From contig JBGTLG010000016.1 in the NCBI GenBank assembly GCA_041744215.1, positions 64,001 to 128,000 on the forward strand: DNA of 64,000 bases, written 5' to 3'. The position numbers and the translations under genes were made by a program. Every line of letters starts with the position of its first letter. Positions within the stretch are counted from its first letter, which is position 1. This DNA comes from Fimbriimonadales bacterium (GTDB taxonomy: Bacteria > Armatimonadota > Fimbriimonadia > Fimbriimonadales > ATM1). Below are positions 6,719 to 58,145 of this stretch, piece after piece. The notes under the pieces were generated by a model. The model was not told the origin of the DNA. It did not search any database and saw only the letters and a program-made list of their open reading frames with translations.

Positions 6719-7917
6719 TTCAATGCTCCTTCTGTTTGAATCTCCCGTCTGTCTTGCAACACGGCGATGCCGGGCAAGTTCTTGCCTTCCATAAATTCTA
6801 AACTCGCTCCGCCGCCAGTGCTTACATGGCTCATGGCACTAGCAAGTCCCATGCGTTCAACCGCCGCTGCCGTGTCTCCTCCGCCTACGACACTTGTGCA
6901 TGCAGATTCCGCAAGCGCCTTTGCAACTGCTTCAGTTCCCATAGCAAACGCTGGTATCTCACTCACACCCATGGGGCCATTCCATACAACGGTTCCGGCG
7001 TTTAGAATCACTTCTCTAAACGCGCGAGCAGATTCTGTCCCAATGTCCAGCCCCAATTGATCGTGAGGAATTGAGTCCCTATCTACGACTGATCCAGATG
7101 CATCTGCACTGACTTCGGTCGCAACGACAACATCCGATGGCAAAAGAATCTTCGGATCCTCCGAAACAGAGCGCGCAAAGTCCAAGCTCTCTGCATCGAG
7201 TATCGATTTTCCGATCTCGAGCCCCATCGCCCTGTAGAACGTGAACATCATGCCGCCACCGATCAAGAGGCGATCCACTTTCGGCAGAAGCTGTTCGATG
7301 ACGCCGATCTTATCCTTCACTTTGGCGCCACCCAAGATTGCGACGAAGGGTCGAGACGGGTCTTCTAAGGCATTTCCTAGATACTCGATTTCTTTCTCCA
7401 TCAGTAACCCCGCGACGCTGGGTAGATAATGCCCGATTCCTTCCGTGCTTGCATGCGCTCGATGTGCACTACCAAATGCGTCATTGACAAAAAGGTCCGC
7501 GAGAGACGCCAGTTTCTTCGCGAAGACCGGATCGTTTTCCGTCTCTTCTGGATGGAAACGTACGTTTTCCAGCAACATGACGTCACCGCGTTCCAGTGCC
7601 ATCGCCATCAGACTTGCCTCGGGACCAATGCAGTCGGGCGCAAGCGGGACTTCCTTCCCCAACAGTTGCCCCAGCCGTTCCGCAATTGGCGCAAGCGACC
7701 ACTTTGAATCGCGCCCCTTAGGCCTTCCCAGGTGGCTCGCCAAGATGACCTTTGCCCCCGCACCAGTTAAGGCACGTATCGTTGAGAGCGATTCGACAAT
7801 CCTTCGATCATCGACTACCCGACCGGAGTCGTCTTGCGGAACATTGAAATCCGCGCGGACAAATACCCGGCGAGACCCAACGTCAACATCTCGAATGGTC
7901 CGCTTTACGAGCCGCAC
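6715..7917 (-). CDS. pgk: phosphoglycerate kinase
   Basis: RADFNVP, ASHLGRP, LLENVRF, NDAFGSAHRAH, WNGPMG and STGGGASLE. Confidence 0.98.
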   Translation of the reverse strand: MRLVKRTIRDVDVGSRRVFVRADFNVPQDDSGRVVDDRRIVESLSTIRALTGAGAKVILASHLGRPKGRDSKWSLAPIAERLGQLLGKEVPLAPDCIGPEASLMAMALERGDVMLLENVRFHPEETENDPVFAKKLASLADLFVNDAFGSAHRAHASTEGIGHYLPSVAGLLMEKEIEYLGNALEDPSRPFVAILGGAKVKDKIGVIEQLLPKVDRLLIGGGMMFTFYRAMGLEIGKSILDAESLDFARSVSEDPKILLPSDVVVATEVSADASGSVVDRDSIPHDQLGLDIGTESARAFREVILNAGTVVWNGPMGVSEIPAFAMGTEAVAKALAESACTSVVGGGDTAAAVERMGLASAMSHVSTGGGASLEFMEGKNLPGIAVLQDRREIQTEGALK

Positions 7918-7927
7918 GGTCAGGATT

Positions 7928-8482
7928 CTACCGTCCCGGCCTCGCCCATGAGCGGAGCTCCGCGGCGAGGCGTTTAGAATAGACGAGGTTTCCGAGCATA
8001 GTTAGCTTCTCGCGCGGCTCTACCTGAAGGCGCACACGCTTCCCGTCAACTTCTGCTTCAACAAGGACCCATCTGCCGAGCAACAAGAGGGAGTTCATAT
8101 TCGCCCCGAAACGAATCGACCGAATCGCGGACCGAGGCAGCTCATGGTTTAAGGTGTCGCCGAAGAACTCCAAGCGGTCGGAATGAAGGATCAGCCAGCC
8201 GACGTCCTCATGAGTGTGTATTGCTGCCTTTCGCTTTGGGCGCGCAAAGCCAACAAAAAATGTCCGATCCCCAGACCCAGGTCGATCTGCGAGGAGCTTT
8301 CCAAGCATCTCCCGACGCAAGGTCTTGTTTTGAAACAGCGAGAAGAAGTTTATCGCAAGCCAGAGTACAACCGGGATCGACACCCAAACGTAGAAAGCTA
8401 GATCTGATTTGCCAGCCTGACTCAGAGAGACCGCGACCGCTGGGAGCGGCGCGACAAAGAGCAGGGGCACGAGATTCGACAT
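7928..8482 (-). CDS. hypothetical membrane protein
   Basis: 184-aa ORF with two N-terminal hydrophobic segments, in operon-like spacing. Confidence 0.65.
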   Translation of the reverse strand: MSNLVPLLFVAPLPAVAVSLSQAGKSDLAFYVWVSIPVVLWLAINFFSLFQNKTLRREMLGKLLADRPGSGDRTFFVGFARPKRKAAIHTHEDVGWLILHSDRLEFFGDTLNHELPRSAIRSIRFGANMNSLLLLGRWVLVEAEVDGKRVRLQVEPREKLTMLGNLVYSKRLAAELRSWARPGR

Positions 8483-8514
8483 CCATTGCCTAAAGTCTGA
8501 CCAAACTCGATTCT

Positions 8515-9078
8515 TCAGAGCTTCATCCCCAACGTCGCCTGCAACAGATTTACACCTCCATTAGAACCGCCGGTTCCAGCGTTGCTGATGTGAATCCATC
8601 GGATGCCGATGCGCGGCGAGCCTTCGATCGTGTGCAGGTACATCCCTGCACCAGCAAACGAGGCGAAGTTGGCTCTTGTAGAGATATCACCTGTTAACTG
8701 ATCCGCGAGAAAGACTCCAGAGCCAAACTCCATGTAAGGCGAATACTCCTCGCCGTTCGAGTACGTGAGTCGCATTCCGAAACTCAGCCAGCCTGCCAGA
8801 AAATTGCTGCCATCGCGACCATATACATCAGTCAAGATTACTTTTGCTCCTGCGACTTCATCGATTTGCACTTGCTTCCACTTTGCGAACTTGGCCAACC
8901 TTGCGGGCCAAGCTAACTCGAAGCCAAAAGTTGAGCCGCGTCGGTACTCGTTTGTACCGAGCGTGATGATTGATGTGCCGTAAGACACATCAGCGGACCA
9001 GGTTGGGGGATTGAAGTTCTGCGCAATCGCGGAGCTGCAACAAAGGGACAAGCCCAGGAACCATTTTCTCATATTCAA
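8515..9078 (-). CDS. PagL-like acyloxyacyl hydrolase / lipid A deacylase beta-barrel protein
   Basis: Signal peptide; amphipathic beta strands; C-terminal RWIHISNAG...NGGVN (H-x-S-N motif). Confidence 0.75.
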   Translation of the reverse strand: MNMRKWFLGLSLCCSSAIAQNFNPPTWSADVSYGTSIITLGTNEYRRGSTFGFELAWPARLAKFAKWKQVQIDEVAGAKVILTDVYGRDGSNFLAGWLSFGMRLTYSNGEEYSPYMEFGSGVFLADQLTGDISTRANFASFAGAGMYLHTIEGSPRIGIRWIHISNAGTGGSNGGVNLLQATLGMKL

Positions 9079-9080
9079 AT

Positions 9081-10043
9081 CTACTGTGCCATCACTTCCG
9101 CAAGAAGCAATCTCTCAGGGTCAACTTCGCGCGGAGTCGATAACACAACATCCAAGCGCTCTGCGACGAGCCTCTTTCCAACGAGTCCAATTGTATGGCA
9201 TTCACAGCCGGCCATTGCCGCCTTGACCGCTTCTGCACCCATACGCGTAGCGAGGACGCGATCCAATGCTGTCGGGCTGCCGCCTCGCTGCATGTGGCCC
9301 AACACCAAGCAGCGCACCTCGTAGCCAGTTTCGCGATGCAAGTATTCTTGCACCGAGGACGCAGTCGCGGCACCTTCCGCCGTAACGATGATGCTTGATC
9401 GCTTTCCTTTTGCGACACCGGCGCGGAGCGTATCGCAGATCCCGGGAAGGTCGAACGGGAGTTCTGGGATCAAGATCGCTTCCGCACCACCGGCGAGTCC
9501 AGCCTCCAAGGCGATAAAGCCACTCCTCCTGCCCATGACCTCGATCACGAACACTCGATCGTGCGAATAAGCGGTGTCCCGAATCTTGTCAATTGCCTCA
9601 ACAGCGGTGTTCACTGCCGTATCGAAGCCGATGCTCAGATCGCTGCACGGGATGTCATTATCGATCGAGCCTGGCAATCCGATGACCCGAGTGCCGTGTT
9701 CGTTGTGCAGTGCCATTGCTCCGGCGAGCGATCCATCGCCGCCCACAACGACCAGCCAGTGGACTCCGGCGTCGCGTAGAACTGAAGCCGCCTTCGATCG
9801 ACCGTCCGGTTCCATAAACCTCGGGCTCCTGCCGCTCCTAAGCATCGTGCCGCCCCGGCCGATGATGCCACCGACGTCGACCGATTTCATTTGATAGAGG
9901 TCACCATCAATCAGGCCATCGAAACCGTTCCTGACGCCATAGACTTCGAGCCCGCGACCCAGGCTGGTCCGAACAACGGCGCGGATCGAGGCGTTCATCC
10001 CGGGCGAATCGCCACCGCTTGTCAATATCGCCAACCGATCCAT
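9081..10043 (-). CDS. pfkA: ATP-dependent 6-phosphofructokinase
   Basis: LTSGGDSPGMN, GGDGS, SIDND, EVMGR and LGHMQRGG. Confidence 0.97.
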   Translation of the reverse strand: MDRLAILTSGGDSPGMNASIRAVVRTSLGRGLEVYGVRNGFDGLIDGDLYQMKSVDVGGIIGRGGTMLRSGRSPRFMEPDGRSKAASVLRDAGVHWLVVVGGDGSLAGAMALHNEHGTRVIGLPGSIDNDIPCSDLSIGFDTAVNTAVEAIDKIRDTAYSHDRVFVIEVMGRRSGFIALEAGLAGGAEAILIPELPFDLPGICDTLRAGVAKGKRSSIIVTAEGAATASSVQEYLHRETGYEVRCLVLGHMQRGGSPTALDRVLATRMGAEAVKAAMAGCECHTIGLVGKRLVAERLDVVLSTPREVDPERLLLAEVMAQ

Positions 10044-10186
10044 ACCTCCGCGCATTATGGCGAACGCGATGGCCGAGGAGGCGCGGCTTCAGGCTGGCTG
10101 TAGGCAATAAGCATTCTGCTCTAGGTCAGGAGGGCGGCGAAAGTCAACTAACTCATGGCGAACCCGCTGGCTTGACCTGAGCCGCG

Positions 10187-10507
10187 TTACAGGAAGAGTA
10201 CGAGGATCCCGGCGATGTTTGCAACGATTGCCAGCGAGCCGAGGACTATCCCTGCGATGGCGTGGCCCCTCCCAACCAGAGCAGGAATTCGTTTGACTCT
10301 CTGCAATCCAAGTACACCGAAGATAAGCGCTGTTGGGCCGAGCACGAGGCCCAGGCAGGGAATCAGCGAAAAGACGCCGACGTAGTAGGCGGTCAAAGCC
10401 CACGGATTCTTGGTGGGGATCAGTTGCTCGAAGCCTGTAGCCTGCCCATGTTTGGGTGGGCCCTGCTCGGGCGGTTGAGACCAATCGGGTTGGTTACCGT
10501 TCGCCAT
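10187..10507 (-). CDS. DUF4190-like membrane protein
   Basis: Pro/Gln-rich N-terminus, IPTKNPWALTAYYVG and GRGHAIAGIVLG; start taken at MANGNQP. Confidence 0.75.
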   Translation of the reverse strand: MANGNQPDWSQPPEQGPPKHGQATGFEQLIPTKNPWALTAYYVGVFSLIPCLGLVLGPTALIFGVLGLQRVKRIPALVGRGHAIAGIVLGSLAIVANIAGILVLFL

Positions 10508-10615
10508 GGCAGCAATTATGGCGGACTGATTTAGACAACCCGACCGCGGGACCTTCTCACAAACGTCCCTCGGTCGCTTGGTCGGTGCTAGCAGTGGAGT
10601 ACCATTCGGAGTCAG

Positions 10616-11755
10616 ATGGCATTCTTCGCCCCGCAAGCGACCGTTCTTTCGGTCGTATCTCACGTTCGCCCTGCGTTCCGAGAATCAACGCTTCAATCTG
10701 CGGTGGATATCGCGCGCGAGTCGGGCGTCGATTCGATCCCGGTTGTGGCGGGCGGATTTCTTGTTGGCTCGGTTGCCCTGGCGGACCTGACGGCTGCTCT
10801 TCTCAGCGGAGCTTCGCCGCTCGATTCGGTCGAGACGATCATGCGGGAGCCGATGGTCGTGCTACCGAATGTCACTGTTGATCACGCAACCGAGGCGCTC
10901 AGAGCCGTTCGCGCTCAGACGCTCCTCGTTGCGGACACAGATGGTCGCTACGTCGGCGCGGTTCATGCGCTAGCGCTGTTTGGCCGAGCGGCGATTCCGG
11001 CGAGTCCAGGCCTGGTAGGCGGCATGGCGACTCCTGTGGGCGTGTACCTTACGAACGGCGAAGTCAGCGGAGGCGCAAAACCGAGCGCGCTTGTGATCAC
11101 CGGAGCGATGCTATTCATCACGTACTTCTTTGGAATCGCGGCGACGTACGGCGGTTTGCTCGTGGCTGAGAGCACGATGGGGACGCCTTTGATGGAGAAT
11201 GCGTTCAACGCGGTTGGTTGGCCCGGCGCAGTTTTTCAACTCGCCCCAGTCTTGGTGTTTCTCTTGCTGATTCGCCTCTCGCCGATTTCAGGAACTCATG
11301 CTGCGGAGCACATGGTTGTTCATGCGATCGAGCGCCGGGAGCCACTTGTCTACGAAGTCGTGTCTCGGATGCCGAGGGTGCACCCCCGATGCGGTACAAA
11401 CATCGCAGTCGGCGCGATGATGTTCATGGTACTTCTTGATTTCAGTTGGCGCTTTTTGGGCCAGATGGGGCCTTTGTTTGCGCTCGCGCTGACGGTGCTG
11501 ACTTGGCGTTCGATTGGCGGCGTAGTTCAGTACTTTGTAACGACGAAGCCGCCAAATCGAAGACAGGTGGAAGGCGCAATCGCGGCAGCAAACGAACTCC
11601 TCGAAAACTATCGAAACAGCGCACGCCTTTCGCCGAGTTTTTGGAGGCGGTTGGCCAAGAGCGGCTTGCCGTTTGTTTTGGCCGGCGCAATCGCAACTAG
11701 CTCGATTGCGTTGACGATCCTACACTTCATCGGTACGCCGATTCCGATCTGGTGA
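10616..11755 (+). CDS. CBS-pair + DUF1385 membrane protein
   Basis: N-terminal CBS-like repeats; GGMA..GV, HAAEHMVVHAIE, RVHPRCGTN and QYFVTTKPP typical of DUF1385. Confidence 0.78.
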   Translation: MAFFAPQATVLSVVSHVRPAFRESTLQSAVDIARESGVDSIPVVAGGFLVGSVALADLTAALLSGASPLDSVETIMREPMVVLPNVTVDHATEALRAVRAQTLLVADTDGRYVGAVHALALFGRAAIPASPGLVGGMATPVGVYLTNGEVSGGAKPSALVITGAMLFITYFFGIAATYGGLLVAESTMGTPLMENAFNAVGWPGAVFQLAPVLVFLLLIRLSPISGTHAAEHMVVHAIERREPLVYEVVSRMPRVHPRCGTNIAVGAMMFMVLLDFSWRFLGQMGPLFALALTVLTWRSIGGVVQYFVTTKPPNRRQVEGAIAAANELLENYRNSARLSPSFWRRLAKSGLPFVLAGAIATSSIALTILHFIGTPIPIW

Positions 11756-11758
11756 TCG

Positions 11759-12811
11759 TCAGCCGACCCGGATTGCCGCTTCTCCGGCGACCACTCGGCC
11801 GATACAAGCGAACCCTTCTATTGGCACTTTGCTGAAGATTGCCAGCCCACCGCTTGTCTGCGGATCTACAATGACTTCTTGAAGCCACGCCTGTACGGAA
11901 TTGGAAAAGGTGAGGTTGTCGCCAAGGTGCGCGCGTGTCTTCTTTGATCCGGCTGTGAGATTCTTGCGTTCGATCAGCGCTTGAACCCGGGGCAGAAGTG
12001 GGAGTGCTGCAGAGTCGATCTCGATTGCTACACCGCTCGATCGCGCGACATTGAATAGATGCCCCGCCAAGCCGAACCCTGTAATGTCGGTCGCACATTT
12101 TGCTCCGGCAAAAAGCGCTTTTTCCGAGGCATCGCGGTTGAGGTGCGCCATCCACGCTATAGCGACCCCGATGGGGGAGTCTTCGATCACTTTTGCGCCC
12201 GACGGCATAGCGACAGCATCTTCGACGAGCGAATCAAAGGCGAACTCATCGTCCCACTTCGCCGCACTTGTTATGACTCCCGTGCCGAGTGGCTTCGACA
12301 GATAGATCTTGTCACCCGGCTCTGCGCCCGCGTTGTGGAGCATCTGTGCCGGGTCGACAAGGCCCGTGACGGAGCAGCCGAACTTAGGCATGGGATCTTC
12401 GACACTATGTCCGCCGACGATGACCGCACCCGATTCGATCACCTTGTCCGACATGCCTTGCAGAATCCGGGCCCAAACCTCCGCTGGCGCCATCGAAGGA
12501 TCGAAACAGCAGATGTTCATCGCTGTAATCGGCCTGCCGCCCATGGCGTAGACGTCGCTCAACGCATTTGCCGCAGCGATTTGACCGTAAGAGTAAGGAT
12601 CATCGACAATTGGCGTGAAGAAGTCCATCGTTTGGACAAGCGCGTGTCGTTCTGTCACGCGAAAAACTCCCGCGTCGTCGTGAGTATCGAATCCGACGAG
12701 CAGGTCAGGATGAGAGCTACGCGGCAAAGCCGCAAGAACTTCCGCCAACTGCGAAAGGCCCAGCTTGCTCGCTCAACCAGCGCAATCGACGAGTTTTGTG
12801 AGTCGCGTCAC
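11759..12811 (-). CDS. selD: selenide, water dikinase (selenophosphate synthetase), Sec-containing
   Basis: DDAGV, QTMDFFTPIVDDP, ANALSDVYAMGG, GGHS, DITGFGLAGH and DPQTSGGL; upstream in-frame MTRLTKLVDCAG(TGA)ASKLG with TGA at 12773-12775. Confidence 0.95.
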
Positions 12812-12830
12812 AGAGAGAGCATACCGACTG

Positions 12831-12862
12831 CAAGAAAGGCGGGGGCCTTTGATGGCCCCCGC
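12831..12862 (-). terminator. intrinsic terminator of candidate sRNA
   Basis: Perfect 9-bp stem GCGGGGGCC-ATCAAA-GGCCCCCGC followed by CTTTCTT. Confidence 0.75.
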
Positions 12863-12908
12863 AGTGGTCCTCTCCTCCTCCGGCTTTGGCCGGGGAGAGG
12901 CTTTCGCC
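12831..12908 (-). ncRNA. candidate small regulatory RNA (~80 nt), unassigned family
   Basis: Bounded by a consensus promoter and a terminator; internal hairpin CCTCTCC-CCGGC-CAAA-GCCGG-AGGA-GGAGAGG. Confidence 0.5.
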
Positions 12909-12914
12909 ATGTCC

Positions 12915-12943
12915 AATATATACGAATTCGAGGGCGGAGTCAA
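12915..12943 (-). promoter_or_regulatory. sigma70-type promoter
   Basis: TTGACT-17 nt-TATATT on the minus strand with an upstream A-tract. Confidence 0.75.
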
Positions 12944-12981
12944 CAAGTTTTTTACTGAATTTGTGAAATGTTAGCAATACA

Positions 12982-13755
12982 CTATCCCGGCTTCGCCGCT
13001 GACCACACAAAAGCCTGCCCGGTTAGTTCGGCAGATGCGAATCCGTCCAGCACCTGCGACCGGAAAGCGACGCGATTAGCTTCGCCCATCCTGGCGTACA
13101 GAGTCGACAACGGGCCAGCAAGGGACACGACCTGGTCGAATGCCTGTTCGGTAGGCAAGTCGGAATAGTAGGGGACGGCGATTTCGACAGCCGAGACGTC
13201 AACGTATCCTGCTCGTGCGAGCAGGTCACGGACTTCGTCGGCATTCGAGAGGCGGAAAGCGCCCGGATCGTTCGGTTGCGGCAAATTGAGGCCGAGCATT
13301 TCGATGGCAAGTTTTGTCGGAGGGCCAACCCAGAGATTTCTTTCAGGTGGCCCCCACGTCGAGAAGACAAGATGGCCACCAGGTTTTATGGCGCGAATCG
13401 ACTGCTCTAGCGCCGTGGGGACGTCGGCTGCAAAGATCAGCCCGAATCGAGACACGAGCGCGTCGAAGGCGCCGTCTCGGAAAGGAAGCGGGTGGAATGA
13501 GCCCAGTACGGCGCAGCCGTGCGCCGCGATCATGTCTTCTGCGATGTCGAGCCCGACTACGCGCCACGCAGGCGGGTGAGACAAGGAGCCTGCGCCACAG
13601 CCGAGGTCTGCAAGAAGGCCGCCAGTATCTCCGAGCGCGCTATTTATCGCAATCGTAATCGGTTTGAACCATGTCTCGACTTCGTCTGCGCCGACACGCC
13701 ACTTGTCCGCGACGTGCTCCCAAATGCGCTTTTGCTTGGCTTCCTGTTCTTTCAT
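12982..13755 (-). CDS. class I SAM-dependent methyltransferase
   Basis: ADLGCGAG, VVGLDIA, LPFRDGAFD, SRFGLIF and IKPGG; ATGA overlap with the ROK gene. Confidence 0.88.
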   Translation of the reverse strand: MKEQEAKQKRIWEHVADKWRVGADEVETWFKPITIAINSALGDTGGLLADLGCGAGSLSHPPAWRVVGLDIAEDMIAAHGCAVLGSFHPLPFRDGAFDALVSRFGLIFAADVPTALEQSIRAIKPGGHLVFSTWGPPERNLWVGPPTKLAIEMLGLNLPQPNDPGAFRLSNADEVRDLLARAGYVDVSAVEIAVPYYSDLPTEQAFDQVVSLAGPLSTLYARMGEANRVAFRSQVLDGFASAELTGQAFVWSAAKPG

Positions 13756-14729
13756 TCGACAGCTTCCCAAGCAATCACAGTCGCCCCGAGGAGGCCAGCA
13801 TCTTCAAGTTTGTCAGCGACAACTACTTTACAGTCCGGCCACAATGTCGGAATCGCATTCCTTTTCGCGACATCGATCGCGTTCGCCAGGAAATGCTGTT
13901 GCGCCTTCGCGATTTGTCCCGCGATCGCAAGGATCTCGACAGCGAAACCATTTATCAGGTTTCCAATAAGGACTCCTAGGTACTCTCCCGTTTCCTCCCA
14001 AAACTCGATCGCCCCTTTGTGACCTTCGTCGGCAAAGTCAGCGAGTACTTTCGGAGTCAGCACAATGTCTTCTGGAATTCTTGGCATCGCACGACGAAGC
14101 ATGCCGTTAGTTCCGAGATAAGCTTCTACACATCCTCTTGCGCCGCACGAGCACTCCGCGCCGTCCTTTTCGATCACGAGATGTCCGAACTCGACGCCGC
14201 CTCCGTTTCCGCCAACGAGCATTGTCGGCCTGGAGAGCCCGCCGGACACACATGCAGGCGTGAGCACCACGCCGGTGCCAACCCCTGTTCCGAGTGTGAT
14301 TAGTGCGAGCCCTTTTGCGATGCCTTTTCCGGAGCCATACCAATACTCTCCAAGAGCCGCGACGTTCGCGTCGTTGCCCATCACCACAGGAGTCCCAAGG
14401 CTGTCTCGGATTGGGCCAACCAGATCGACGTCGCGATAGCAACGGAACTCGCCGGCGACTATTTCGCCGAAGTTAGGCGCCCATCTTACAAGATCACCGT
14501 CGATGTGACCTGGGACGGCTAAGCCAACTGCGGCGAGGTGCCGCTGGCCCTTTGCTTGGAGGATAGCTCCGATCGTCGCGTCGATCGTTTTCTGGCTGCC
14601 TTCTTGGGCCCGGGACGCGGCCTCCACCCTCGGCCCAGCCGGCCTCCCAGTTTCATCGAACGCTGCTGCCCGCACATTTGTGCCCCCCAAATCAACGCCG
14701 ACAACGACCGAATCAGTCACTCGGGACAT
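13752..14729 (-). CDS. ROK family sugar kinase (glucokinase-like)
   Basis: GVDLGGT, NDANVAALGE, TLGTGVG, EFGH and CSCGARGCVE. Confidence 0.93.
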   Translation of the reverse strand: MSRVTDSVVVGVDLGGTNVRAAAFDETGRPAGPRVEAASRAQEGSQKTIDATIGAILQAKGQRHLAAVGLAVPGHIDGDLVRWAPNFGEIVAGEFRCYRDVDLVGPIRDSLGTPVVMGNDANVAALGEYWYGSGKGIAKGLALITLGTGVGTGVVLTPACVSGGLSRPTMLVGGNGGGVEFGHLVIEKDGAECSCGARGCVEAYLGTNGMLRRAMPRIPEDIVLTPKVLADFADEGHKGAIEFWEETGEYLGVLIGNLINGFAVEILAIAGQIAKAQQHFLANAIDVAKRNAIPTLWPDCKVVVADKLEDAGLLGATVIAWEAVE

Positions 14730-14749
14730 TTTATCGTAAACAATGGGCC

Positions 14750-15694
14750 ATGGCTTTGCCGTCTGGTCCGCTCAAGCAGATCGCGCTCGACTCGGGGTTC
14801 GACCTCGCTGGCGTGTGCCCTGCAGTAGAACCGGCGCACTTCGACGCTTACCTTGAATGGATTGCCCGCGGAATGTATGCGGGTATGGACTGGATGGCGC
14901 GATCGCGAGAGGCGCGCGGGTCGCCCACGAGTCTGCTGGAGGGGTGCAGGTCAGTGCTCGCTGTGGGTCTGAACTATGCGCAGGAGAACGAGGTAACCCG
15001 ATGTGATGGTTCTCTGAAAGTCGCGAAGTACGCGTGGGGGCGCGATTATCATAAGGTTCTGAGATCGAAGTTAAAGCGGGTCGTTCGCAATTTGGAGGTG
15101 CAATATCCGGGGATTCGGTCTCGGATATGTGTGGATTCTGCGCCGATTTTGGAACGGGAGTACGCGTGGCTCGCTGGGATCGGGTGGTATGGAAAGAACT
15201 CGTGCGTGATCAACACCGAGCGGGGGAGTTGGTTCTTTATCGGGTTGCTTCTGCTAGATCAAGAGTTCGAGAGCGACACACCGGCAAGCGGCGGGTGTGG
15301 CACTTGCAGCGCCTGCATCGACGCTTGTCCTACAGGGGCGTTAGTCGTGCGCGAGGATTCACCAGTCGCGTTCGTCGATTCAAGCAGGTGCATCAGCTAC
15401 CTAACGATTGAGCATAAAGGTGAGTTTAGTGAGTTGGAGTCCACCATGCTGAACGGTTGGGTGTTTGGTTGCGATGTTTGCCAAGACGTTTGTCCGTTCA
15501 ATCGCGCCCGTCTTCACCACCCTTTGCGTGCGAAAGCAACGACGGAGAAAGACTTTGCTCCGAGGCCACAGAATATATCGCCCGACGCCGACTTCCTGTC
15601 AAAAGCGAGCGAAGAAGAGTTTGTGGATTTGTACAAAGGTTCCGCGCTGATGCGCGCTGGGGTTAAGCGCATGAAGAGGAATCTTCTGAGGTGA
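14750..15694 (+). CDS. queG: epoxyqueuosine reductase
   Basis: YAWGRDYH, VDSAPILER, GWYGKN, CGTCSACIDACPTGA, CISYLTIE and GCDVCQDVCPFN. Confidence 0.95.
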   Translation: MALPSGPLKQIALDSGFDLAGVCPAVEPAHFDAYLEWIARGMYAGMDWMARSREARGSPTSLLEGCRSVLAVGLNYAQENEVTRCDGSLKVAKYAWGRDYHKVLRSKLKRVVRNLEVQYPGIRSRICVDSAPILEREYAWLAGIGWYGKNSCVINTERGSWFFIGLLLLDQEFESDTPASGGCGTCSACIDACPTGALVVREDSPVAFVDSSRCISYLTIEHKGEFSELESTMLNGWVFGCDVCQDVCPFNRARLHHPLRAKATTEKDFAPRPQNISPDADFLSKASEEEFVDLYKGSALMRAGVKRMKRNLLR

Positions 15695-16468
15695 CTACCA
15701 CTTTTCCTCTCCGATTCCCTCGACTCCTCCGAGCTGTAAATCGAGTTCTGTGCGAGTTTCGATTTTCGCGATCTCGCCATCACGTACGTAGACTATGCGG
15801 TCAGATACATCGAGCATTTTGAGGTCATGCGTGGCGGAGATGATGGTTACTCCCCGGTCTTCGTTCAGCATGCGGAGCAGATCGATGATTTCTTTCCCAG
15901 TTTTGAGATCGAGGTTTCCGGTCGGTTCGTCGGCGAGGATGATTGCGGGATCATTTGCGAGTGCTCGGGCGATCGCGACTCGCTGCTGCTGACCACCGGA
16001 CAACTCCGTCGGCCTATGATGGAGTCGGTCGCCGAGTCCGACAGAGGCGAGCAACTCGACACCCTTCTCGTCAGCGTCATCTGCGCTTAGTCCGGCGAAG
16101 AGCATCGGGAGCGTGACGTTTTCGAGTGCTGTTCGAACCTGAATCAGATTAAACGTTTGAAAGATGTATCCAATCGTTCTGTTGCGCAGGTATGCAAGCT
16201 CAGGCGGCGATAGCTGGGCGATGTCGACTTCGTTTATGTAGACGCTGCCTCCAGTCGGCTTGTCGAGTCCTCCGACCATATTGAACAGCGTGCTCTTACC
16301 GCTTCCGCTCGGTCCCATGATACTGACGTATTCGCCTCGCTGCACATCCAGCGAAACCCCACGCAGCGCATGTACTACTTCGTCACCGAGATGGTAGAGC
16401 TTTTGTACGTCGCGCGTACGTACTATAAGCTCGGATTCGAAGGCGGGGTTTGCGGCGATGGGCTTCAC
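15695..16468 (-). CDS. ABC transporter ATP-binding protein (LolD/MacB type)
   Basis: GPSGSGKST, LSGGQQQRVAIARAL, ADEPTGNLD and ATHD. Confidence 0.95.
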   Translation of the reverse strand: MKPIAANPAFESELIVRTRDVQKLYHLGDEVVHALRGVSLDVQRGEYVSIMGPSGSGKSTLFNMVGGLDKPTGGSVYINEVDIAQLSPPELAYLRNRTIGYIFQTFNLIQVRTALENVTLPMLFAGLSADDADEKGVELLASVGLGDRLHHRPTELSGGQQQRVAIARALANDPAIILADEPTGNLDLKTGKEIIDLLRMLNEDRGVTIISATHDLKMLDVSDRIVYVRDGEIAKIETRTELDLQLGGVEGIGEEKW

Positions 16469-17047
16469 CTAAACCTCAACTCTCAGCGCCGCGGCTGCGG
16501 GCATTCTCGCTGCCTGGATAGCGGGCAGGATTGCGGCGAGGATGGTGATCAAGGATCCAATTGCCACCGCGGTGCCGACAATCGGGGCCCAGGCAGCGCC
16601 AAGCAGCCCCAATGAGTTTGTGCCATCGGTGACGAAGCGGACGCATACCATCACAAGTACGCCAAGGACTGCGCCGACCGCGGACGACATGACCCCAATC
16701 AGGAGCGCTTCCAAAAAGAAAACCTTAACGATGAATGAGTTTGTCGCGCCCAGACATTTGAACGTTCCGATTTCCTTGTATCGTTCTGTGACACTCATTA
16801 GCATCGCATTCGTGATACCGACGAGGCACATCAACAACGAAAGGAACACCAGCCAGCTAAGTTTGGCTGCGCTTTCTTCAGAGTGGGGATCCCCGGCTGC
16901 CAATGCAAGGCTCGTTCGCACGCTTGCGTAGAAGGCGATTCCCAAAAGTACGCCGATTGCGGTCGCGAACTGCCGCGACAGTCGCATGCGAATACTTTTT
17001 ATCGCTTGCTTGAGGGCAACAGCTAGAGGCGGGTCCTTTTGCTTCAT
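16469..17047 (-). CDS. FtsX/MacB-like ABC permease (short, 4 TM)
   Basis: ITNAMLMSVTERYKEIGTFKCLGA...EALL and PA.QAARM.AA.ALR; no large periplasmic loop. Confidence 0.88.
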   Translation of the reverse strand: MKQKDPPLAVALKQAIKSIRMRLSRQFATAIGVLLGIAFYASVRTSLALAAGDPHSEESAAKLSWLVFLSLLMCLVGITNAMLMSVTERYKEIGTFKCLGATNSFIVKVFFLEALLIGVMSSAVGAVLGVLVMVCVRFVTDGTNSLGLLGAAWAPIVGTAVAIGSLITILAAILPAIQAARMPAAAALRVEV

Positions 17048-17427
17048 TTCTTCGGCACCTCGAGAGCAATGTACTTTCGCTTCATGAGTGTCTCCAAGAA
17101 TGCAAGGAGCGACGCTTCTGCCTCTACCTTAGTGAGCTTGTACTCCCTCTGCAAAGCCTCAACAATTCCCTGTACTGATCGTTTTCCATCGCAGAGATTC
17201 CAGACGAAAGCGCCTACTTGCTCAAGCTCCACTTGCTTGTCATCCGGTACGACTTTGCCCACCGTTCTTCCAAGAAAGCCGCGCTGAGTTACCGGTACGA
17301 ACAGCATGATACACCCGTCATCTGAGGATTCGAAGCGAATCGCAGGGTTGCGAATCGGGCGTGCGCGGCGAATGTCGGAGCGATTCGCCCGAGGCTGTTT
17401 GCGAAAGTTCAGTCGAAGAAGTCCCAT
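17044..17427 (-). CDS. PqqD family / RRE peptide-binding protein
   Basis: ELEQVGAFVWNLCDGKRSVQGIVEALQREY...EASLLAFLETLMKRKYI PqqD-like pattern. Confidence 0.82.
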   Translation of the reverse strand: MGLLRLNFRKQPRANRSDIRRARPIRNPAIRFESSDDGCIMLFVPVTQRGFLGRTVGKVVPDDKQVELEQVGAFVWNLCDGKRSVQGIVEALQREYKLTKVEAEASLLAFLETLMKRKYIALEVPKK

Positions 17428-18194
17428 TGTGGCGCGTGAGCCCTTGAGTGTACTGCGTTGATGACCAAGAGTTGGTTTCGCTCTTGATCATGCATCACCA
17501 GTGCGGTTCTTCGTCCCTTGTTTAGGCGAATTCCATCTTTGCCAACCTCGCAGTCGGCCTTGATGCCGGTCGCGGCGACTGCCCAGCCGCAAAAGTCGTG
17601 CTTTGCGAGCAGCTGCGAGGCGAACGCCCACCGATCGACCGTGAACTTCTCCAGCCGACGCTTGAATACAAGCGTCGTTCGCCCACTGAGGAGCTTGAAC
17701 GAGGACAACTGGAGGTTGGCGGGCAGCCAAACCGAGACGCCGAGAATGCTCCAGGGGATTGGGCTTCCCGTGTGACACTCGACGGAATCTACTAGTTCGC
17801 GCGCCTCTCGCTTGAAGCTGTCACCGCTTCTCCCCGATCGCTCGACAAACATGACCCTCCTGGCCTCGGGCTCGAACCACATTCGCCCATATCCTTTCGC
17901 GCCTGCGTGCCACTCATAGTCCACCGCCCCCGACTCGAGAATGTCGATATTGGAGCGAAAAGCCTGCCGGCTCCGCTTTGCCGTTCTTTCGATTTGCGAG
18001 AAGTAGGCCAGCACCCGTCGATTGATTCCGGTCACGGGCTTTGAGGCTTTCCAGCGGACTTGAATGACAGCTTCCCTCTCGCCTTCGAGGCGTACATAGC
18101 CTTCTCTTTGGGTGCCCGAAAGCACAGCAGGGCGCCATTCGCCCCCGACAGGAAGAGAGAAACCTTGCCAGGCAAAACGGTCGCCCAGGTTCAA
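17409..18194 (-). CDS. hypothetical protein
   Basis: 261-aa ORF coupled to the PqqD gene; internal duplication-like FAWQGFSLPV / PWSILGVSVWLP; no recognised catalytic motif. Confidence 0.75.
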   Translation of the reverse strand: MNLGDRFAWQGFSLPVGGEWRPAVLSGTQREGYVRLEGEREAVIQVRWKASKPVTGINRRVLAYFSQIERTAKRSRQAFRSNIDILESGAVDYEWHAGAKGYGRMWFEPEARRVMFVERSGRSGDSFKREARELVDSVECHTGSPIPWSILGVSVWLPANLQLSSFKLLSGRTTLVFKRRLEKFTVDRWAFASQLLAKHDFCGWAVAATGIKADCEVGKDGIRLNKGRRTALVMHDQERNQLLVINAVHSRAHAPQWDFFD

Positions 18195-18521: not shown

Positions 18522-19838
18522 GTGGCTGAGCAAAAGTTGAGGAACCTCCCGAGCGTGGCAAATCTTCTTGCCGCGCCTGAGCTTGCCTCCGTGCCTCATC
18601 TTGTCGCAGTTGCGGCTGCTCGCGAGGCCGTAGCCACCGCCCGGAGGAATGGGACCGCCGGTGAGTCCGTTCTGGCGGAGGCGGTCGAACTCGCACGGAG
18701 GTACATGGCACCAGCCTATCGCCCCGTAATCAACTGCTCCGGCACGATCCTCAACACTGGGCTGGGTAGGGCGCGTCTCGCCCCAGACGCGGTCGCTGCA
18801 ATGGCAGCTGCTGCAAGCTCTCACTCTATTCTCGAACTGGACATGGGGTCGGGGCGGCGCGGAGACAGGCAAGAAGGTTTGCGATCGCTGATCATTCGCC
18901 TCACCGGAGCCGAGTCCGCTCTCGTTGTGAATAATAACGCTGGGGCAGTTCTCCTAACGATCAACACCTTGGCAACAGGCAAGAAAGTTCTTCTATCCCG
19001 AGGCCAGAGCGTGGAGATCGGCGGCGCATTTCGGATGCCAGATGTTGTCAAGGCTTCGGGCGCGATTCTGGTTGACGTGGGTACGACAAACAAGACGAAA
19101 GTCTCTGACTACGAGGCCGCATTCGATTCCGAGTGCGCGGTTCTGCTTCGATGCCACCCAAGCAACTTCAAAATCTCCGGATTCGTTGCAGAGCCGACAG
19201 CGGAAGACTTGGCGGGGTGCGCGAAGAAACTGAAGATTACGATGGTAGACGACGTTGGAAGCGGCAGTCTCATCGACACGGCACAATTCGGGCTGCCTCA
19301 TGAACAGACAGTTAGAGAGGCACTAGGAGCCGGCGCACACATCGTTACTGCCAGCGGGGACAAGCTACTCGGCGGTCCGCAGGCAGGACTCATCATCGGC
19401 AAGTCGAAACTCATTGCCAAGATCGCCAAGAACCCGCTGGCACGTGCCCTACGGATTGATAAAGTCACGGCGGCAGGTCTGGAAGCAACGCTGCGACTTT
19501 ATTGGGAAGGCCGAGCATTGGAGATCCCCACAATTCGCTACCTGTCGCGCACATCCGACGAGGTCAAAGTTCTGGGAGACCGACTGGCGAAACAACTTAA
19601 TGCTACTGCCGAACCAAGCATGTGCGAACCAGGAGGTGGTTCCTTACCCGGAGTGCAGATACCATCGTGGCGCGTCACGATTCGCGGGAACGCAAATGAA
19701 ATCGCAACGCGGTTCCGGACGATGCCGATCCCTGTAATCGGCTACATCGAATCCGGAGCGTTCAGGTTAGACCTTCGATGCGTCGACGAAGACGAGCTTG
19801 ATACCATCGCACGACAAGCTGCCGAGGTTTTTTCTTGA
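18522..19838 (+). CDS. selA: L-seryl-tRNA(Sec) selenium transferase
   Basis: RPVINCSGTILNTGLGRA, VVNNNAGAV, SRGQSVEIGGAFRMPD, HPSNF, SGDKLLGGPQAG and RALRIDK. Confidence 0.96.
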   Translation: MAEQKLRNLPSVANLLAAPELASVPHLVAVAAAREAVATARRNGTAGESVLAEAVELARRYMAPAYRPVINCSGTILNTGLGRARLAPDAVAAMAAAASSHSILELDMGSGRRGDRQEGLRSLIIRLTGAESALVVNNNAGAVLLTINTLATGKKVLLSRGQSVEIGGAFRMPDVVKASGAILVDVGTTNKTKVSDYEAAFDSECAVLLRCHPSNFKISGFVAEPTAEDLAGCAKKLKITMVDDVGSGSLIDTAQFGLPHEQTVREALGAGAHIVTASGDKLLGGPQAGLIIGKSKLIAKIAKNPLARALRIDKVTAAGLEATLRLYWEGRALEIPTIRYLSRTSDEVKVLGDRLAKQLNATAEPSMCEPGGGSLPGVQIPSWRVTIRGNANEIATRFRTMPIPVIGYIESGAFRLDLRCVDEDELDTIARQAAEVFS

Positions 19839-21215: not shown

Positions 21216-21724
21216 CGTCGCTTATAGTTCACCCGAACGACAACCGAATCGGCGCGCCGAACGAAAGGTGGCAGATCGGGGAACACCGCCTGGTCGCCTT
21301 GACCGTTAAACTCTGGAAAGGCTGCTTCCTTTAGAATCAGCACTTGTAGCTTTGCGCCGGTGTGCTCCCAAACGCCACCGCGCGTTATCGGAGGTTGCAT
21401 GGAAGGATCCACACGTTCGAGCTCCAGCTTTGCTATCTCGACGATTTTGTCAAACGCAACTTGAACAGTGAACACCTCCCAATAGGCGATCGGCGAGTCA
21501 CCGTCGATTGGTGGCGCAACCCGCGCAGGTATTGCACCACCGAGAAACTCGAATGAGATTCTGTCGACGCCAGTTCGTTGAAAAAGCACCTCGCGCCGGT
21601 CTTTTATTCTCGCCGTCTCCTTGAAAACCCAAACGACGCCCCCAAGTGTGAGCAGCGTAAAAAACACGGCGCACCCGAGCACGAGCTTTCGCCCACTAAG
21701 CCCCGGTTTGTCCATTACTTTCAT
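21212..21724 (-). CDS. hypothetical membrane-anchored protein
   Basis: N-terminal TM segment; ATGA overlap with the XdhC gene stop. Confidence 0.65.
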   Translation of the reverse strand: MKVMDKPGLSGRKLVLGCAVFFTLLTLGGVVWVFKETARIKDRREVLFQRTGVDRISFEFLGGAIPARVAPPIDGDSPIAYWEVFTVQVAFDKIVEIAKLELERVDPSMQPPITRGGVWEHTGAKLQVLILKEAAFPEFNGQGDQAVFPDLPPFVRRADSVVVRVNYKRR

Positions 21725-28186: not shown

Positions 28187-28797
28187 CTAGGAGTTGCGGC
28201 GACGTCGCGCGGCCAGCGCTGCGAGACCGAGGCCGACCACAGCGAGTGTCGCGGGCTCGGGTACCACCTCGTAGTGGACGTTGCCAGCGAATGTGCGCTG
28301 CTCAAATCTCGTTCCGCCGAACGCGACGGTGCTCACGCGAGAAACATTGCTGAACAATCGCAAGTCAGCATTCTCCCAAAGCTCTTGAGGAGGGTTTGCC
28401 GCAGTGCCGGTGTACCTAATGCCTCCTGTCGCAGTTGCTTGAAGGTAGACACCCTTTACTTGCCCGGCGGTCAACTCGAGCTGTGTCGTAAGCACGAGGG
28501 GATCGAGAACAAACGTTCCCTGACGCGTGCCCACCACAGTCTGAGTTAAGGTCCACCCAGCGCTGCTTCCATCGAAGCCGACGTAGGATCCTGGTCTCGT
28601 CCAAACTTCGACATTGACGGTCGTACCGATCATGCCAGTGTAGGCAACGTCGAACTGAGTCACGTACAGATCCATGGTAAGGGCCGTGAGGTCCATGAAT
28701 ATTCCGCCGCTCCCGTTGTTCGGCGGTGCGGTTGACAGAATCCCCGCAGCACCCACCCCTACAAGAGCAGCAGCAACCCAGCAAAATACTTCCTCAT
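28187..28797 (-). CDS. PEP-CTERM sorting domain protein 2 (1-nt frameshift in the signal peptide; pseudogene or sequence error)
   Basis: C-terminus VPEPATLAVVGLGLAALAARRRRNS; ATG at 28797 reads MRKYFAG then LLLLL-stop, while the main frame carries VAAALVGVGAAG. Confidence 0.8.
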
Positions 28798-40444: not shown

Positions 40445-41002
40445 GTGTTCAAAAATTCTGACGTTTCGAAGGTCAGAGAGGCCCAGGACTTGTTCCTCCA
40501 GGAATGGGGGCGGATGAGCAGCAGCTGGGGAATCAACCGGACGATGGCTCAGATCCACGCTCTGCTGTTTGTTACCGGCGAGCCGCACACCATGGACGAG
40601 ATCTGCGGGCGTCTGCATATCAGCCGGGGTAACGCGAGCATGAACCTAAGGGGTCTCATGGACTGGGGAGTGATCAGGCGGTTTAGGAAGGCTGGCGAGA
40701 GACATGACACGTACGTTAGCGACACCGAGGCCCTCACAATGGTCGCACGCGTGCTCAGGGAACGAAAGCGCCGCGAACTAGACCCGACCGTCGACGCGTT
40801 GCAGTCTTGCCTTCAGATGCTTCCTGACTCGGGCGCGGCTACGTTTCGATCACGGGTGACCGGCCTACTCGAGGTGTTTGAGATGCTCGACATAGTCTTC
40901 AAGTACGCGTTACAGACGGACGAGCGACTTGGGGAGATTGTTAAGCACAGAAAAGACATCGCGACACTGCTTGAAAACGTTCAGCCCATCGCAGAATCCT
41001 AA
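40445..41002 (+). CDS. GbsR/MarR family transcriptional regulator
   Basis: WGRMSSSWGINRTMAQIHALL, ISRGNASMNLR.L.DWG and ERKRRELDP. Confidence 0.88.
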   Translation: MFKNSDVSKVREAQDLFLQEWGRMSSSWGINRTMAQIHALLFVTGEPHTMDEICGRLHISRGNASMNLRGLMDWGVIRRFRKAGERHDTYVSDTEALTMVARVLRERKRRELDPTVDALQSCLQMLPDSGAATFRSRVTGLLEVFEMLDIVFKYALQTDERLGEIVKHRKDIATLLENVQPIAES

Positions 41003-41047
41003 ACTGAATCGTCTCGCCAGAGCTTTGTTGGGCGTACAATAAGTGTT

Positions 41048-41955: not shown

Positions 41956-41973
41956 GTGGCCTTACTTCTGACT

Positions 41974-42483
41974 TTACTTGGCGGGTGTTTCCGCTGACGA
42001 CTCTCCCGCCTCAGGCGCGGATCGCGGCGCAGGCCGTGGAGCCTCGCGATCGTACTGACGATCAAACCTGCGCGGCGGTCGTCCTTCTCCTCGATAGCCT
42101 CTTTCAGGGTGAGCAATCTCAAGCGACACAAAAGGCATGAGCGCCATTTCCCGCGCGCGGCGGATCGCCCTCGAGATCATTCGCTGCTGCTTGGCGGTGT
42201 TCCCCGTTTGTCGCGAGCCAACGATTTTTCCTTGCTCATTGATGAAGCGCTTGAGGAGTCCCGTGTCTTTGTAGTCGACGGACTCGATCTTGTTGAGGGT
42301 TAGGAAGCTGACCTTCCGGCGGCGCTTTGGCCTTGGTCTGCCCTCCTTGCCATAGGGAGATGCTCCCCTGTCGTCATGCGGCGCTGCGCCCGTTCGAGGC
42401 TTGTACTCTCGTGCGGGACCCTCGGGTTTCGGCGCGGCGGGCGCCTTGTCCGCCTGCGCTGGAGTGGTCTGTTCTTCGCTCAT
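41974..42483 (-). CDS. rpsR: 30S ribosomal protein S18 with long extensions
   Basis: [41 protein letters not shown]. Confidence 0.93.
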
Positions 42484-42536
42484 AGTGATATTGTCGCCGG
42501 TTCCCGGCGGACGGTGATTATGGCACGGAAGGCATC

Positions 42537-57256: not shown

Positions 57257-57382
57257 AGGCGGGTTCGGGCGAATTATGCCACAGCTTGGCTTGTTGGACG
57301 CCCAAGAGTAATGTCGGCTTTTGGGAGTAGAACGTTCAGGGCGACCGGGGCCCAGATATCAAAAACCGCCCAAAAGCAGCGC

Positions 57383-57403
57383 GTTGGCAGAAGAATTGCC
57401 AAC
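57383..57403. promoter_or_regulatory. palindromic site / sigma54-like -24/-12 element upstream of PEP-CTERM gene 3
   Basis: GTTGGCA-GAAGAAT-TGCCAAC; TGGCA-N6-TTGC with GG-N10-GC spacing. Confidence 0.5.
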
Positions 57404-57473
57404 TAAACCCGTCGACATGGCCACGATAGCGACAACCTCGCTCCGATTCGAAAAGCAACAGGAAACCTCAACA

Positions 57474-58145
57474 ATGAACCTCTGGAAACCCTCAGCCGCA
57501 GCCCTCATCGGGGCAGTCTTCGTTTCGGGCGCGCCGGCGGCCGTACTCATCGACCAGTCCCCATTTGACAACTTCGGGTTCTACTCGGACGGCGTCGCTG
57601 GACAGTTTTACGACCAACGCATGGCGGACGACTTCACGCTCGGAATAGGGGCAGAGGTCACGAAGATCGTTTGGTGGGGCAGCTCCGAGAACTTCTTTGG
57701 CCCCGCGGGGCTCGACAACTTCAGCGACTGGGTCATCCGGATCTACGAGGACAGCGCAGGCGCAGTGGGCAGCGAAGTGTTCGGAGCGACATACAGCAAG
57801 GCGAGCACGAACCCAGTTTTCACCGGATCGCTCTCCGAATCCGACGGCGAAATCTATCGCCAGGAGGCGAGCCTCTCGCTCAACCTGGACGCAGGGACGT
57901 ATTGGGTGTCGATCGGCACGATCAACGTCGTTGCAGATGACGACGCCTGGGCATGGCACGCCGCGACGGGCGTATACAACGATCGGATCGCTGGAGAGCT
58001 TGAGTTCGGAGCCGGCTACGCGACGTTTGAGGGCCTCGGCGACCTTGCGTTCCAGATCGAGGGGAACCCGGTGCCGGAGCCCGCAACCCTGCTCGCTCTC
58101 GGAGTCAGCCTCGCCGCCCTGGCGGCCCGCCGCCGGCGGAAGTAG
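57474..58145 (+). CDS. PEP-CTERM sorting domain protein 3
   Basis: Signal peptide from MNLWKPS; ADDF and LDAGTYWVSI; C-terminus VPEPATLLALGVSLAALAARRRRK. Confidence 0.92.
   Translation: MNLWKPSAAALIGAVFVSGAPAAVLIDQSPFDNFGFYSDGVAGQFYDQRMADDFTLGIGAEVTKIVWWGSSENFFGPAGLDNFSDWVIRIYEDSAGAVGSEVFGATYSKASTNPVFTGSLSESDGEIYRQEASLSLNLDAGTYWVSIGTINVVADDDAWAWHAATGVYNDRIAGELEFGAGYATFEGLGDLAFQIEGNPVPEPATLLALGVSLAALAARRRRK

Follow-up and report, generated by a model that had tools for sequence, protein, structure and literature searches.

A candidate small RNA gene of about 78 nt between a methyltransferase gene and selD in a Fimbriimonadales bacterium

In the stretch of DNA analysed here (the window; 64,000 nt from a Fimbriimonadales bacterium), a gap of 170 nt on the minus strand separates a class-I methyltransferase gene from selD. 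The methyltransferase gene (Pfam Methyltransf_11) ends with a TAG stop codon at 12984-12982, and selD, the downstream neighbour, encodes a selenophosphate synthetase with AIRS and AIRS_C domains (11759..12811, GTG start at 12811). Within the gap lie a promoter, hairpins, a terminator and a -10 box belonging to selD. A preliminary description had proposed an RNA unit of about 80 nt at this place; every feature claimed for that unit was recovered on the minus strand where it had been located, and the length that we predict for the RNA is ~78 nt (12831..12908).

A search for SelD homologues, with one genome taken per species, yielded 17 loci from relatives. The four nearest (L001 to L004) come from Fimbriimonadales or Armatimonadota MAGs, and their SelD proteins are 84, 63, 58 and 58% identical to that of the window. 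The translation of selD in the window revealed an in-frame TGA (selenocysteine) at codon 13 (12775-12773, minus strand), located in a conserved glycine-rich N-terminal motif and not mentioned in the preliminary description. L001, L002 and L004 share this codon; the corresponding codon of L003 is TGC (Cys). Because of the in-frame TGA, SelD is itself a selenoprotein here. The window also contains, 6 kb from selD and on the plus strand (18522-19838), a selA gene (L-seryl-tRNA selenium transferase; Pfam E = 1.5e-123), and ARAGORN found no tRNA gene, tRNA-Sec included, and no tmRNA gene in the 64-kb window.

The promoter that would drive the RNA consists of a -35 hexamer, TTGACT (12938..12943, minus strand), followed after 17 nt by a -10 hexamer, TATATT (12915..12920). 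Both hexamers are as first described (12943-12915), and so is the A-tract upstream of the -35. The further claim that this is the single best sigma-70 match of the window did not hold, as the promoter ties with two other sites. We counted three sites with at least 10/12 matches in the whole window against 2.1 ± 1.7 in 30 Markov resamples, and the region 8000-18000 had 3 promoter-like sites against 2.9 expected; the promoter match by itself is not above chance.

Transcription from this promoter should start at about 12908, 7 nt after the -10, and should stop within a U-rich tail near 12831, both ends being predictions. The 5' end of the RNA forms a mini-hairpin (GGCGAAAGCC, 12908-12899, minus strand) with a 3-bp stem and a GAAA tetraloop of the GNRA type, and shares two C residues with the next helix. 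This second hairpin (P1; 12869..12900, minus strand) has 7 + 5 bp, a 4-nt apical loop and a 4-nt purine bulge. Its 3' strand contains the four clustered GGA motifs that had been reported. A single-stranded linker, ACCACU (12863..12868), then leads to an intrinsic-terminator hairpin (12839..12862) with a 6-nt loop, whose stem has the nine base pairs originally attributed to it, all of them G-C. The U-rich tail that follows (CUUUCUU, 12831..12838) is interrupted, with 5 U in 8; it is able to base-pair with the run of purines that ends P1 on the 3' side. Such a tail behind a G+C-rich stem is the signature of an intrinsic terminator. In the region 8000-18000 we found 10 terminator-like sites against 10.8 expected, and the one at 12839..12862 was the strongest among those listed.

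Folding of the window RNA (88 nt) gave -46.1 kcal/mol (z = -3.9, 1/200 shuffles as good), which is moderately better than shuffled sequences. Folding of the corresponding RNA in L001 gave -51.6 kcal/mol (z = -5.7, 0/200 shuffles as good). The inner stem of P1 formed with a pair probability of 0.99 and the terminator with pair probabilities of 0.90-1.0 (computed for the window sequence), and the linker was unpaired with a probability of ~0.9 in both sequences. The 3' strand of P1 is a purine repeat and allows two pairing registers of about equal weight. In the first, the mini-hairpin is open and the outer 7 pairs of P1 are formed. In the second, the mini-hairpin is closed, the helix has slipped by 3 nt, and the leftover purines pair with the U-rich tail, lengthening the terminator helix. 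The mini-hairpin competes in this way with the outer register of P1 and is present in about half of the ensemble. The window and L001 are alike in this behaviour, and pairing between tail and purines occurred in the minimum-energy folds of both, but in different registers.

The search for homologs in related genomes brought up one relative that carries the unit. In L001, a Fimbriimonadales MAG, the RNA element is found at the same place (L001 2897-2980), within a gene order that is also kept: ROK kinase, methyltransferase, RNA, selD, DUF1385/CBS. No such element was found upstream of selD in L002, L003 or L004, with only 148 nt of upstream sequence on the contig of L002. The two genomes have diverged widely: the four-fold degenerate sites of selD, 70/167 of which (42%) are identical between the window and L001, are near saturation and served as the neutral background. 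Against this background the body of the RNA (12908-12839) stood out with 59/70 identical positions (p = 3e-13). On either side the similarity was lower: 1/6 nt between the -10 and 12908 and 6/13 in the tail were identical. Conservation thus starts exactly at 12908, the expected start of a transcript from this promoter, and drops past the terminator stem.

In the promoter, the -10 hexamer is 6/6 identical in L001, the -35 reads TTGACA at the aligned place (5/6 identical), and the 17-nt spacing is the same, yet the spacer sequence is only 7/17 identical. A promoter of its own, kept independently of the flanking sequence, is what a stand-alone sRNA gene should have. Further upstream, an A/T-rich block that includes the A-tract (12944..12971, minus strand) is identical to L001 in 20/28 columns (p = 0.0015 against the 42% at four-fold sites), and the sequence flanking this block is deleted or diverged in L001. 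The block may be an UP-element-like sequence or the site of a regulator. An imperfect palindrome had also been reported at 12977-12961; it is there in the window, with 5/7 positions matching per half, but it is not conserved in L001, where its promoter-distal half falls in a missing stretch of 9 nt.

We then compared the changes between the two sequences with the predicted structure. All 21 base pairs are kept in both (P1 12/12, one of them as U-G; terminator 9/9, one of them as G-U). Only 2/42 paired nucleotides have changed, both to G-U, compared with 9/28 unpaired nucleotides (Fisher p = 0.005). Changes were concentrated in the P1 apical loop (4/4), the P1 bulge (2/4; AGGA to GAGA) and the terminator loop (2/6), whereas the first 13 nt of the RNA, and with them the mini-hairpin, are invariant and the linker is 5/6 identical (ACYACU). 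Since only two sequences carry the element, there were no compensatory double changes (0/21 pairs), the pairs showing 2 one-sided wobble changes, and a shuffle control of covariation is uninformative with n = 2. The RNA structure is thus supported by the pattern of changes, not proven by covariation. The stems are near-invariant despite saturated neutral sites, which hints at sequence-specific constraints beyond a purely structural model. Taken with the promoter, these results show purifying selection on the element, both as a promoter and as a folded RNA, and we regard its conservation in one relative as the decisive support for the RNA element.

The same comparison bears on whether the region is translated. 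An ATG at 12910 had been pointed out as being in frame with selD, which is correct, and this frame is open from 12946 to the in-frame TGA of selD at 12775-12773. It could extend SelD at its N-terminus or form a short ORF that precedes selD and is coupled to it. L001, however, has no such ATG, and its frame is interrupted by an indel of 1 nt located between terminator and selD, so that the translation-coupled read-through once suggested from this ATG falls away and the region is not coding. In addition, the changes track the RNA pairing and not codon positions, and SelD of L002-L004 begins at the aligned GTG or ATG with no extension. We give a protein-coding function practically no weight.

Further copies of the RNA were sought with a covariance model (R1) built from the two copies. 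R1 detected none beyond the window and L001 in the window plus the 17 loci (167,084 bases, both strands), and the RNA is thus not a repeat in the sequence searched. Apart from these copies, R1 gave opposite-strand matches to the terminator and, weakly, to P1 in L001 (E = 0.65), and one row with E = 4.5. Plasmids and phages gave no match to 12825-12985 by blastn in distant mode. The preliminary description had recognised no RNA family, and Rfam 15 agrees, with no match in the 64-kb window at gathering thresholds. Lowering the cutoff to E <= 10 brought up chance-level matches only, such as sX7 on the opposite strand (15.1 bits against a threshold of 55) and, in L001, ar7 (18.3 bits against a threshold of 60). 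Three intergenic gaps elsewhere in the window (21216-21720, 40537-41047 and 41956-42536; 505-581 nt) likewise had no Rfam match, and their small ORFs had no Pfam match. The segment 40400-42600, which covers the last two gaps, had no promoter-like site and one weak terminator-like site, located inside an ORF.

Downstream of the terminator, selD has a -10 region of its own (CGGTATGCT, 12818..12826, minus strand) composed of CGG and TATGCT, with the TATGCT box (12823-12818) ending 6 nt before the GTG. The box had been noted before, and the whole 9-nt block is 9/9 identical in L001, compared with 3/6 for the six nucleotides between it and the GTG. In L002 and L003, CGGTATTCT with its TATTCT box stands six nt before GTG, and L004 has TAAACT seven nt before ATG. 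A conserved -10 box at leaderless distance before selD is therefore shared by the window and L001-L004, though L002-L004 lack the RNA. We could recognise no -35 for the selD box. To see how common this arrangement is, we counted TANNNT motifs ending 5-8 nt before the first start codon, the start codons being those of the longest ORF. They were present at 12/65 ORFs, against a background of 132/5772 (2.3%) ATG, GTG or TTG triplets (p = 3e-8, computed with n = 66). Boxes of this type are found at 7917 (pgk, minus strand), 18522 (selA, plus), 26611 (IMP dehydrogenase, plus), 41048 (plus), 51942 (minus) and 60372 (plus), among others; they often have GG before them and usually lack both a -35 and a Shine-Dalgarno (SD) sequence. 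An SD-like motif was found at 17/65 ORFs of the window. These counts point to leaderless mRNAs being frequent in this organism. In Deinococcus, initiation of transcription at AUG or GUG from such promoters is well known (PMC4007540).

The conserved promoter of the RNA and the separate preservation of the selD -10, also in relatives that lack the RNA, fit the earlier proposal of an independent transcript, and on these sequence comparisons that is what the RNA unit looks like. The conserved leaderless box and the enrichment of such boxes argue against a dependence of selD on the promoter of the RNA. A second tandem arrangement was seen at 52027-51942 on the minus strand, where a consensus-like promoter of TTGACA and GAAAAT, 16 nt apart (10/12), lies ~58 nt before a gene with its ATG at 51942. 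This gene also has a leaderless-type box (TATAAT/TAATCT) just before the ATG; between the two promoters there is, by eye, a possible short hairpin with an AAAG loop, and no terminator was seen in the sequence.

The arrangement at selD also admits a reading in which the RNA is a cis-regulatory 5' leader, the strong upstream promoter being the real promoter of selD and the terminator a regulated attenuator that depends on a protein or a ligand and controls the amount of polymerase arriving at selD. The element lies directly upstream of selD on the same strand, and this linkage is conserved. Since the selD -10 lacks a recognisable -35, there is room for input from the strong upstream promoter, and since the U-tract is interrupted, some read-through into selD is possible. 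A precedent exists in E. coli, where an RNA hairpin in the 5' UTR regulates selAB (10.64898/2026.03.03.709296). Against this reading, no antiterminator alternative appeared in nascent-RNA folding or among suboptimal folds. Nascent RNA of nt 1-61 kept P1 and left the 5' strand of the terminator free in both sequences, and no alternative pairing competed with the terminator. The selD attenuator mentioned in the preliminary description is not borne out by these folds or by the high pair probability of the terminator, and in the folding model there is no switchable terminator. Both variable loops speak against a ligand pocket located there, and on a read-through transcript the GTG would have no SD in front of it. 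The -10-like box at leaderless distance in L002-L004, which have no such element, and the frequency of this signature in the window also weigh against a leader. We consider a 5' leader rather unlikely, with enough in its favour to be kept in mind.

In another reading it would be the act of transcription, and not the RNA, that matters. The promoter and the terminator, situated 8-20 bp before the -35-less promoter of selD, would tune selD either by occluding that promoter or by passing to it a polymerase that has terminated without leaving the DNA. Only 15 nt separate the end of the terminator stem from the selD -10, which is within the footprint that a polymerase would need at the selD promoter, and no features of the unit are better kept than the promoter and terminator. 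Bacterial polymerase has been shown in vitro to diffuse and re-initiate after termination (PMC6978380 and PMC6978322). However, P1, the mini-hairpin and the linker match the terminator in strength of conservation, and a pure delivery or occlusion device would need none of them. We regard this reading as improbable. An effect in cis of the RNA's transcription on the selD promoter is a minority alternative to the independent sRNA gene.

We turned to what the RNA might do. Two of the functions first put forward for it rested on P1. Pairing of its CCUCUCC strand with SD sequences (anti-SD pairing) is contradicted by the fold, in which this strand is paired in essentially the whole ensemble. A sponge of the CsrA type fared no better: there are only four GGA motifs (three in L001), all located in a helix strand or a bulge and none in a hairpin loop. 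More broadly, the RNA could titrate a protein, either as a CsrA/RsmA-type sponge acting through the GGA motifs or as a SECIS-like decoy for SelB. Four GGA motifs within 14 nt, the adjoining selD gene with selA 6 kb away, and the precedent of the SelB-binding leader of E. coli selAB (10.64898/2026.03.03.709296) make this conceivable. On the other side, the 78 nt contain one GGA cluster only, and AGGA in the bulge has become GAGA in L001. No CsrA or Hfq domain was detected by Pfam among the 81 ORFs scanned in the 64-kb window. The complete change of the P1 apical loop leaves no SelB-type loop recognition conserved, and because this loop is free to vary and the terminator separates the hairpin from the start codon, a SECIS-like SelB site is unlikely. 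A consensus fold of the region after the selD TGA in four sequences, made to compare a SECIS there with P1, was weak (-10.5 kcal/mol), and no likeness between this region and P1 was established from it. We consider titration of a protein very unlikely.

Base-pairing with selD mRNA gave no better lead. In neither of the two genomes did the RNA pair better with the initial 120 nt of selD than with shuffled targets, of which 89/200 and 69/200 were at least as good. In a ranking of 65 5' regions, by a weak method that ignores intramolecular structure, selD came 16th and selA 18th. A 7-nt match between the 5' end of the RNA and the region after the selD TGA was rejected, as it shrinks to 5 nt in L001.

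Conservation and accessibility coincide in two parts of the RNA, the GAAA loop and the linker ACYACU. Judging from the folding model, the likeliest contact surfaces would be the invariant 5' GAAA hairpin and this linker, and not the buried C-rich strand. We infer that the RNA most likely acts in trans as a regulator, through the 5' hairpin or the linker, while its close and preserved association with selD may point to a role in cis. A more specific and quite doubtful possibility is that the locus controls selenium metabolism, either by the RNA acting in trans on the mRNAs of selenoproteins or sel genes, or as a device in cis on the selD promoter. In the latter version the device would govern how active this -35-less, leaderless promoter is, in front of a gene whose own product cannot be made without selenocysteine; it might do so by occlusion or by passing on polymerase left on the DNA, with input via the block 12971-12944.

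Two observations elsewhere in the window concern other genes. A four-gene run on the minus strand (15695-18194) contains, in order, an ORF of no known family (17409-18194), a PqqD-family protein (17044-17427), an FtsX-like permease and an ABC ATPase. Proteins of the PqqD type are a frequent sign of peptide natural-product clusters. Three small proteins have a C-terminal PEP-CTERM sorting motif (1740-2378 and 28187-28756 on the minus strand, 57321-58145 on the plus strand).

Several known systems resemble the element in part. Small RNAs of the RsaE/RoxS type are trans-acting C-rich sRNAs with their own promoter and an intrinsic terminator. The candidate resembles them in its size class (~80-100 nt), in having a stand-alone sigma-70-type promoter and stem-loops ahead of a terminator, in a C-rich stretch whose sequence is complementary to purine runs of the SD type, and in being taxonomically restricted. 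It differs in that no Rfam family, the RsaE/RoxS type included, reaches threshold and in having its C-rich stretch buried in a stable helix instead of exposed in loops. With the sponges CsrB, RsmY and RsmZ it has in common clustered GGA motifs in a small RNA that is predicted to be strongly transcribed; unlike in these RNAs, none of its 3-4 GGA motifs is in a hairpin loop, all of them being in a bulge or a helix strand, and it is much shorter and has no Rfam match. The order of promoter, folded RNA, intrinsic terminator and gene on one strand recalls terminator-type attenuators and riboswitch leaders, but there is no mutually exclusive antiterminator, selD keeps a leaderless-type promoter, and the loops are variable. 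Finally, the SECIS-like SelB-binding hairpin in the 5' UTR of E. coli selAB is also a hairpin before a gene of the selenocysteine pathway. That hairpin abuts the SD and represses translation (10.64898/2026.03.03.709296), whereas P1 precedes a terminator, lies 58 nt from a start codon without an SD, and has an apical loop that is not conserved. A survey of titles and abstract openings found no RNA element upstream of selD and no sRNAs from Armatimonadota.

The reading that we prefer, with a probability of roughly 0.55, is that the element is a lineage-specific, independent gene for a small non-coding RNA of ~78 nt and that selD is transcribed separately. The sigma-70-type promoter would start transcription at ~12908, and the RNA would fold into the 5' GNRA mini-hairpin, the 12-bp hairpin and the terminator hairpin. 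Termination in the U-rich tail near 12831 would be constitutive and would yield a compact RNA. The selD gene, 20 nt further on, would not be the cargo of this transcript and would be transcribed from its own -35-less promoter into a leaderless mRNA beginning at the GTG. Because the sponge, SECIS, anti-SD and selD-pairing readings found no support, we commit only to a stand-alone, constitutively terminated sRNA. It looks like a real gene of an ordinary kind, a promoter, hairpins and a terminator, found so far in two genomes.

Should the RNA prove to be a common trans-acting sRNA whose targets are unrelated, the finding would be worth no more than a local annotation. The locus nonetheless provides a clean, testable sRNA candidate with precisely predicted ends in Armatimonadota. 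It also places a terminator 15 nt before the -10 of a gene predicted to be leaderless, whose product, a selenoprotein, makes the selenium donor for its own synthesis. This tandem layout would be a convenient place to ask how neighbouring transcription units interact and how selD is controlled.
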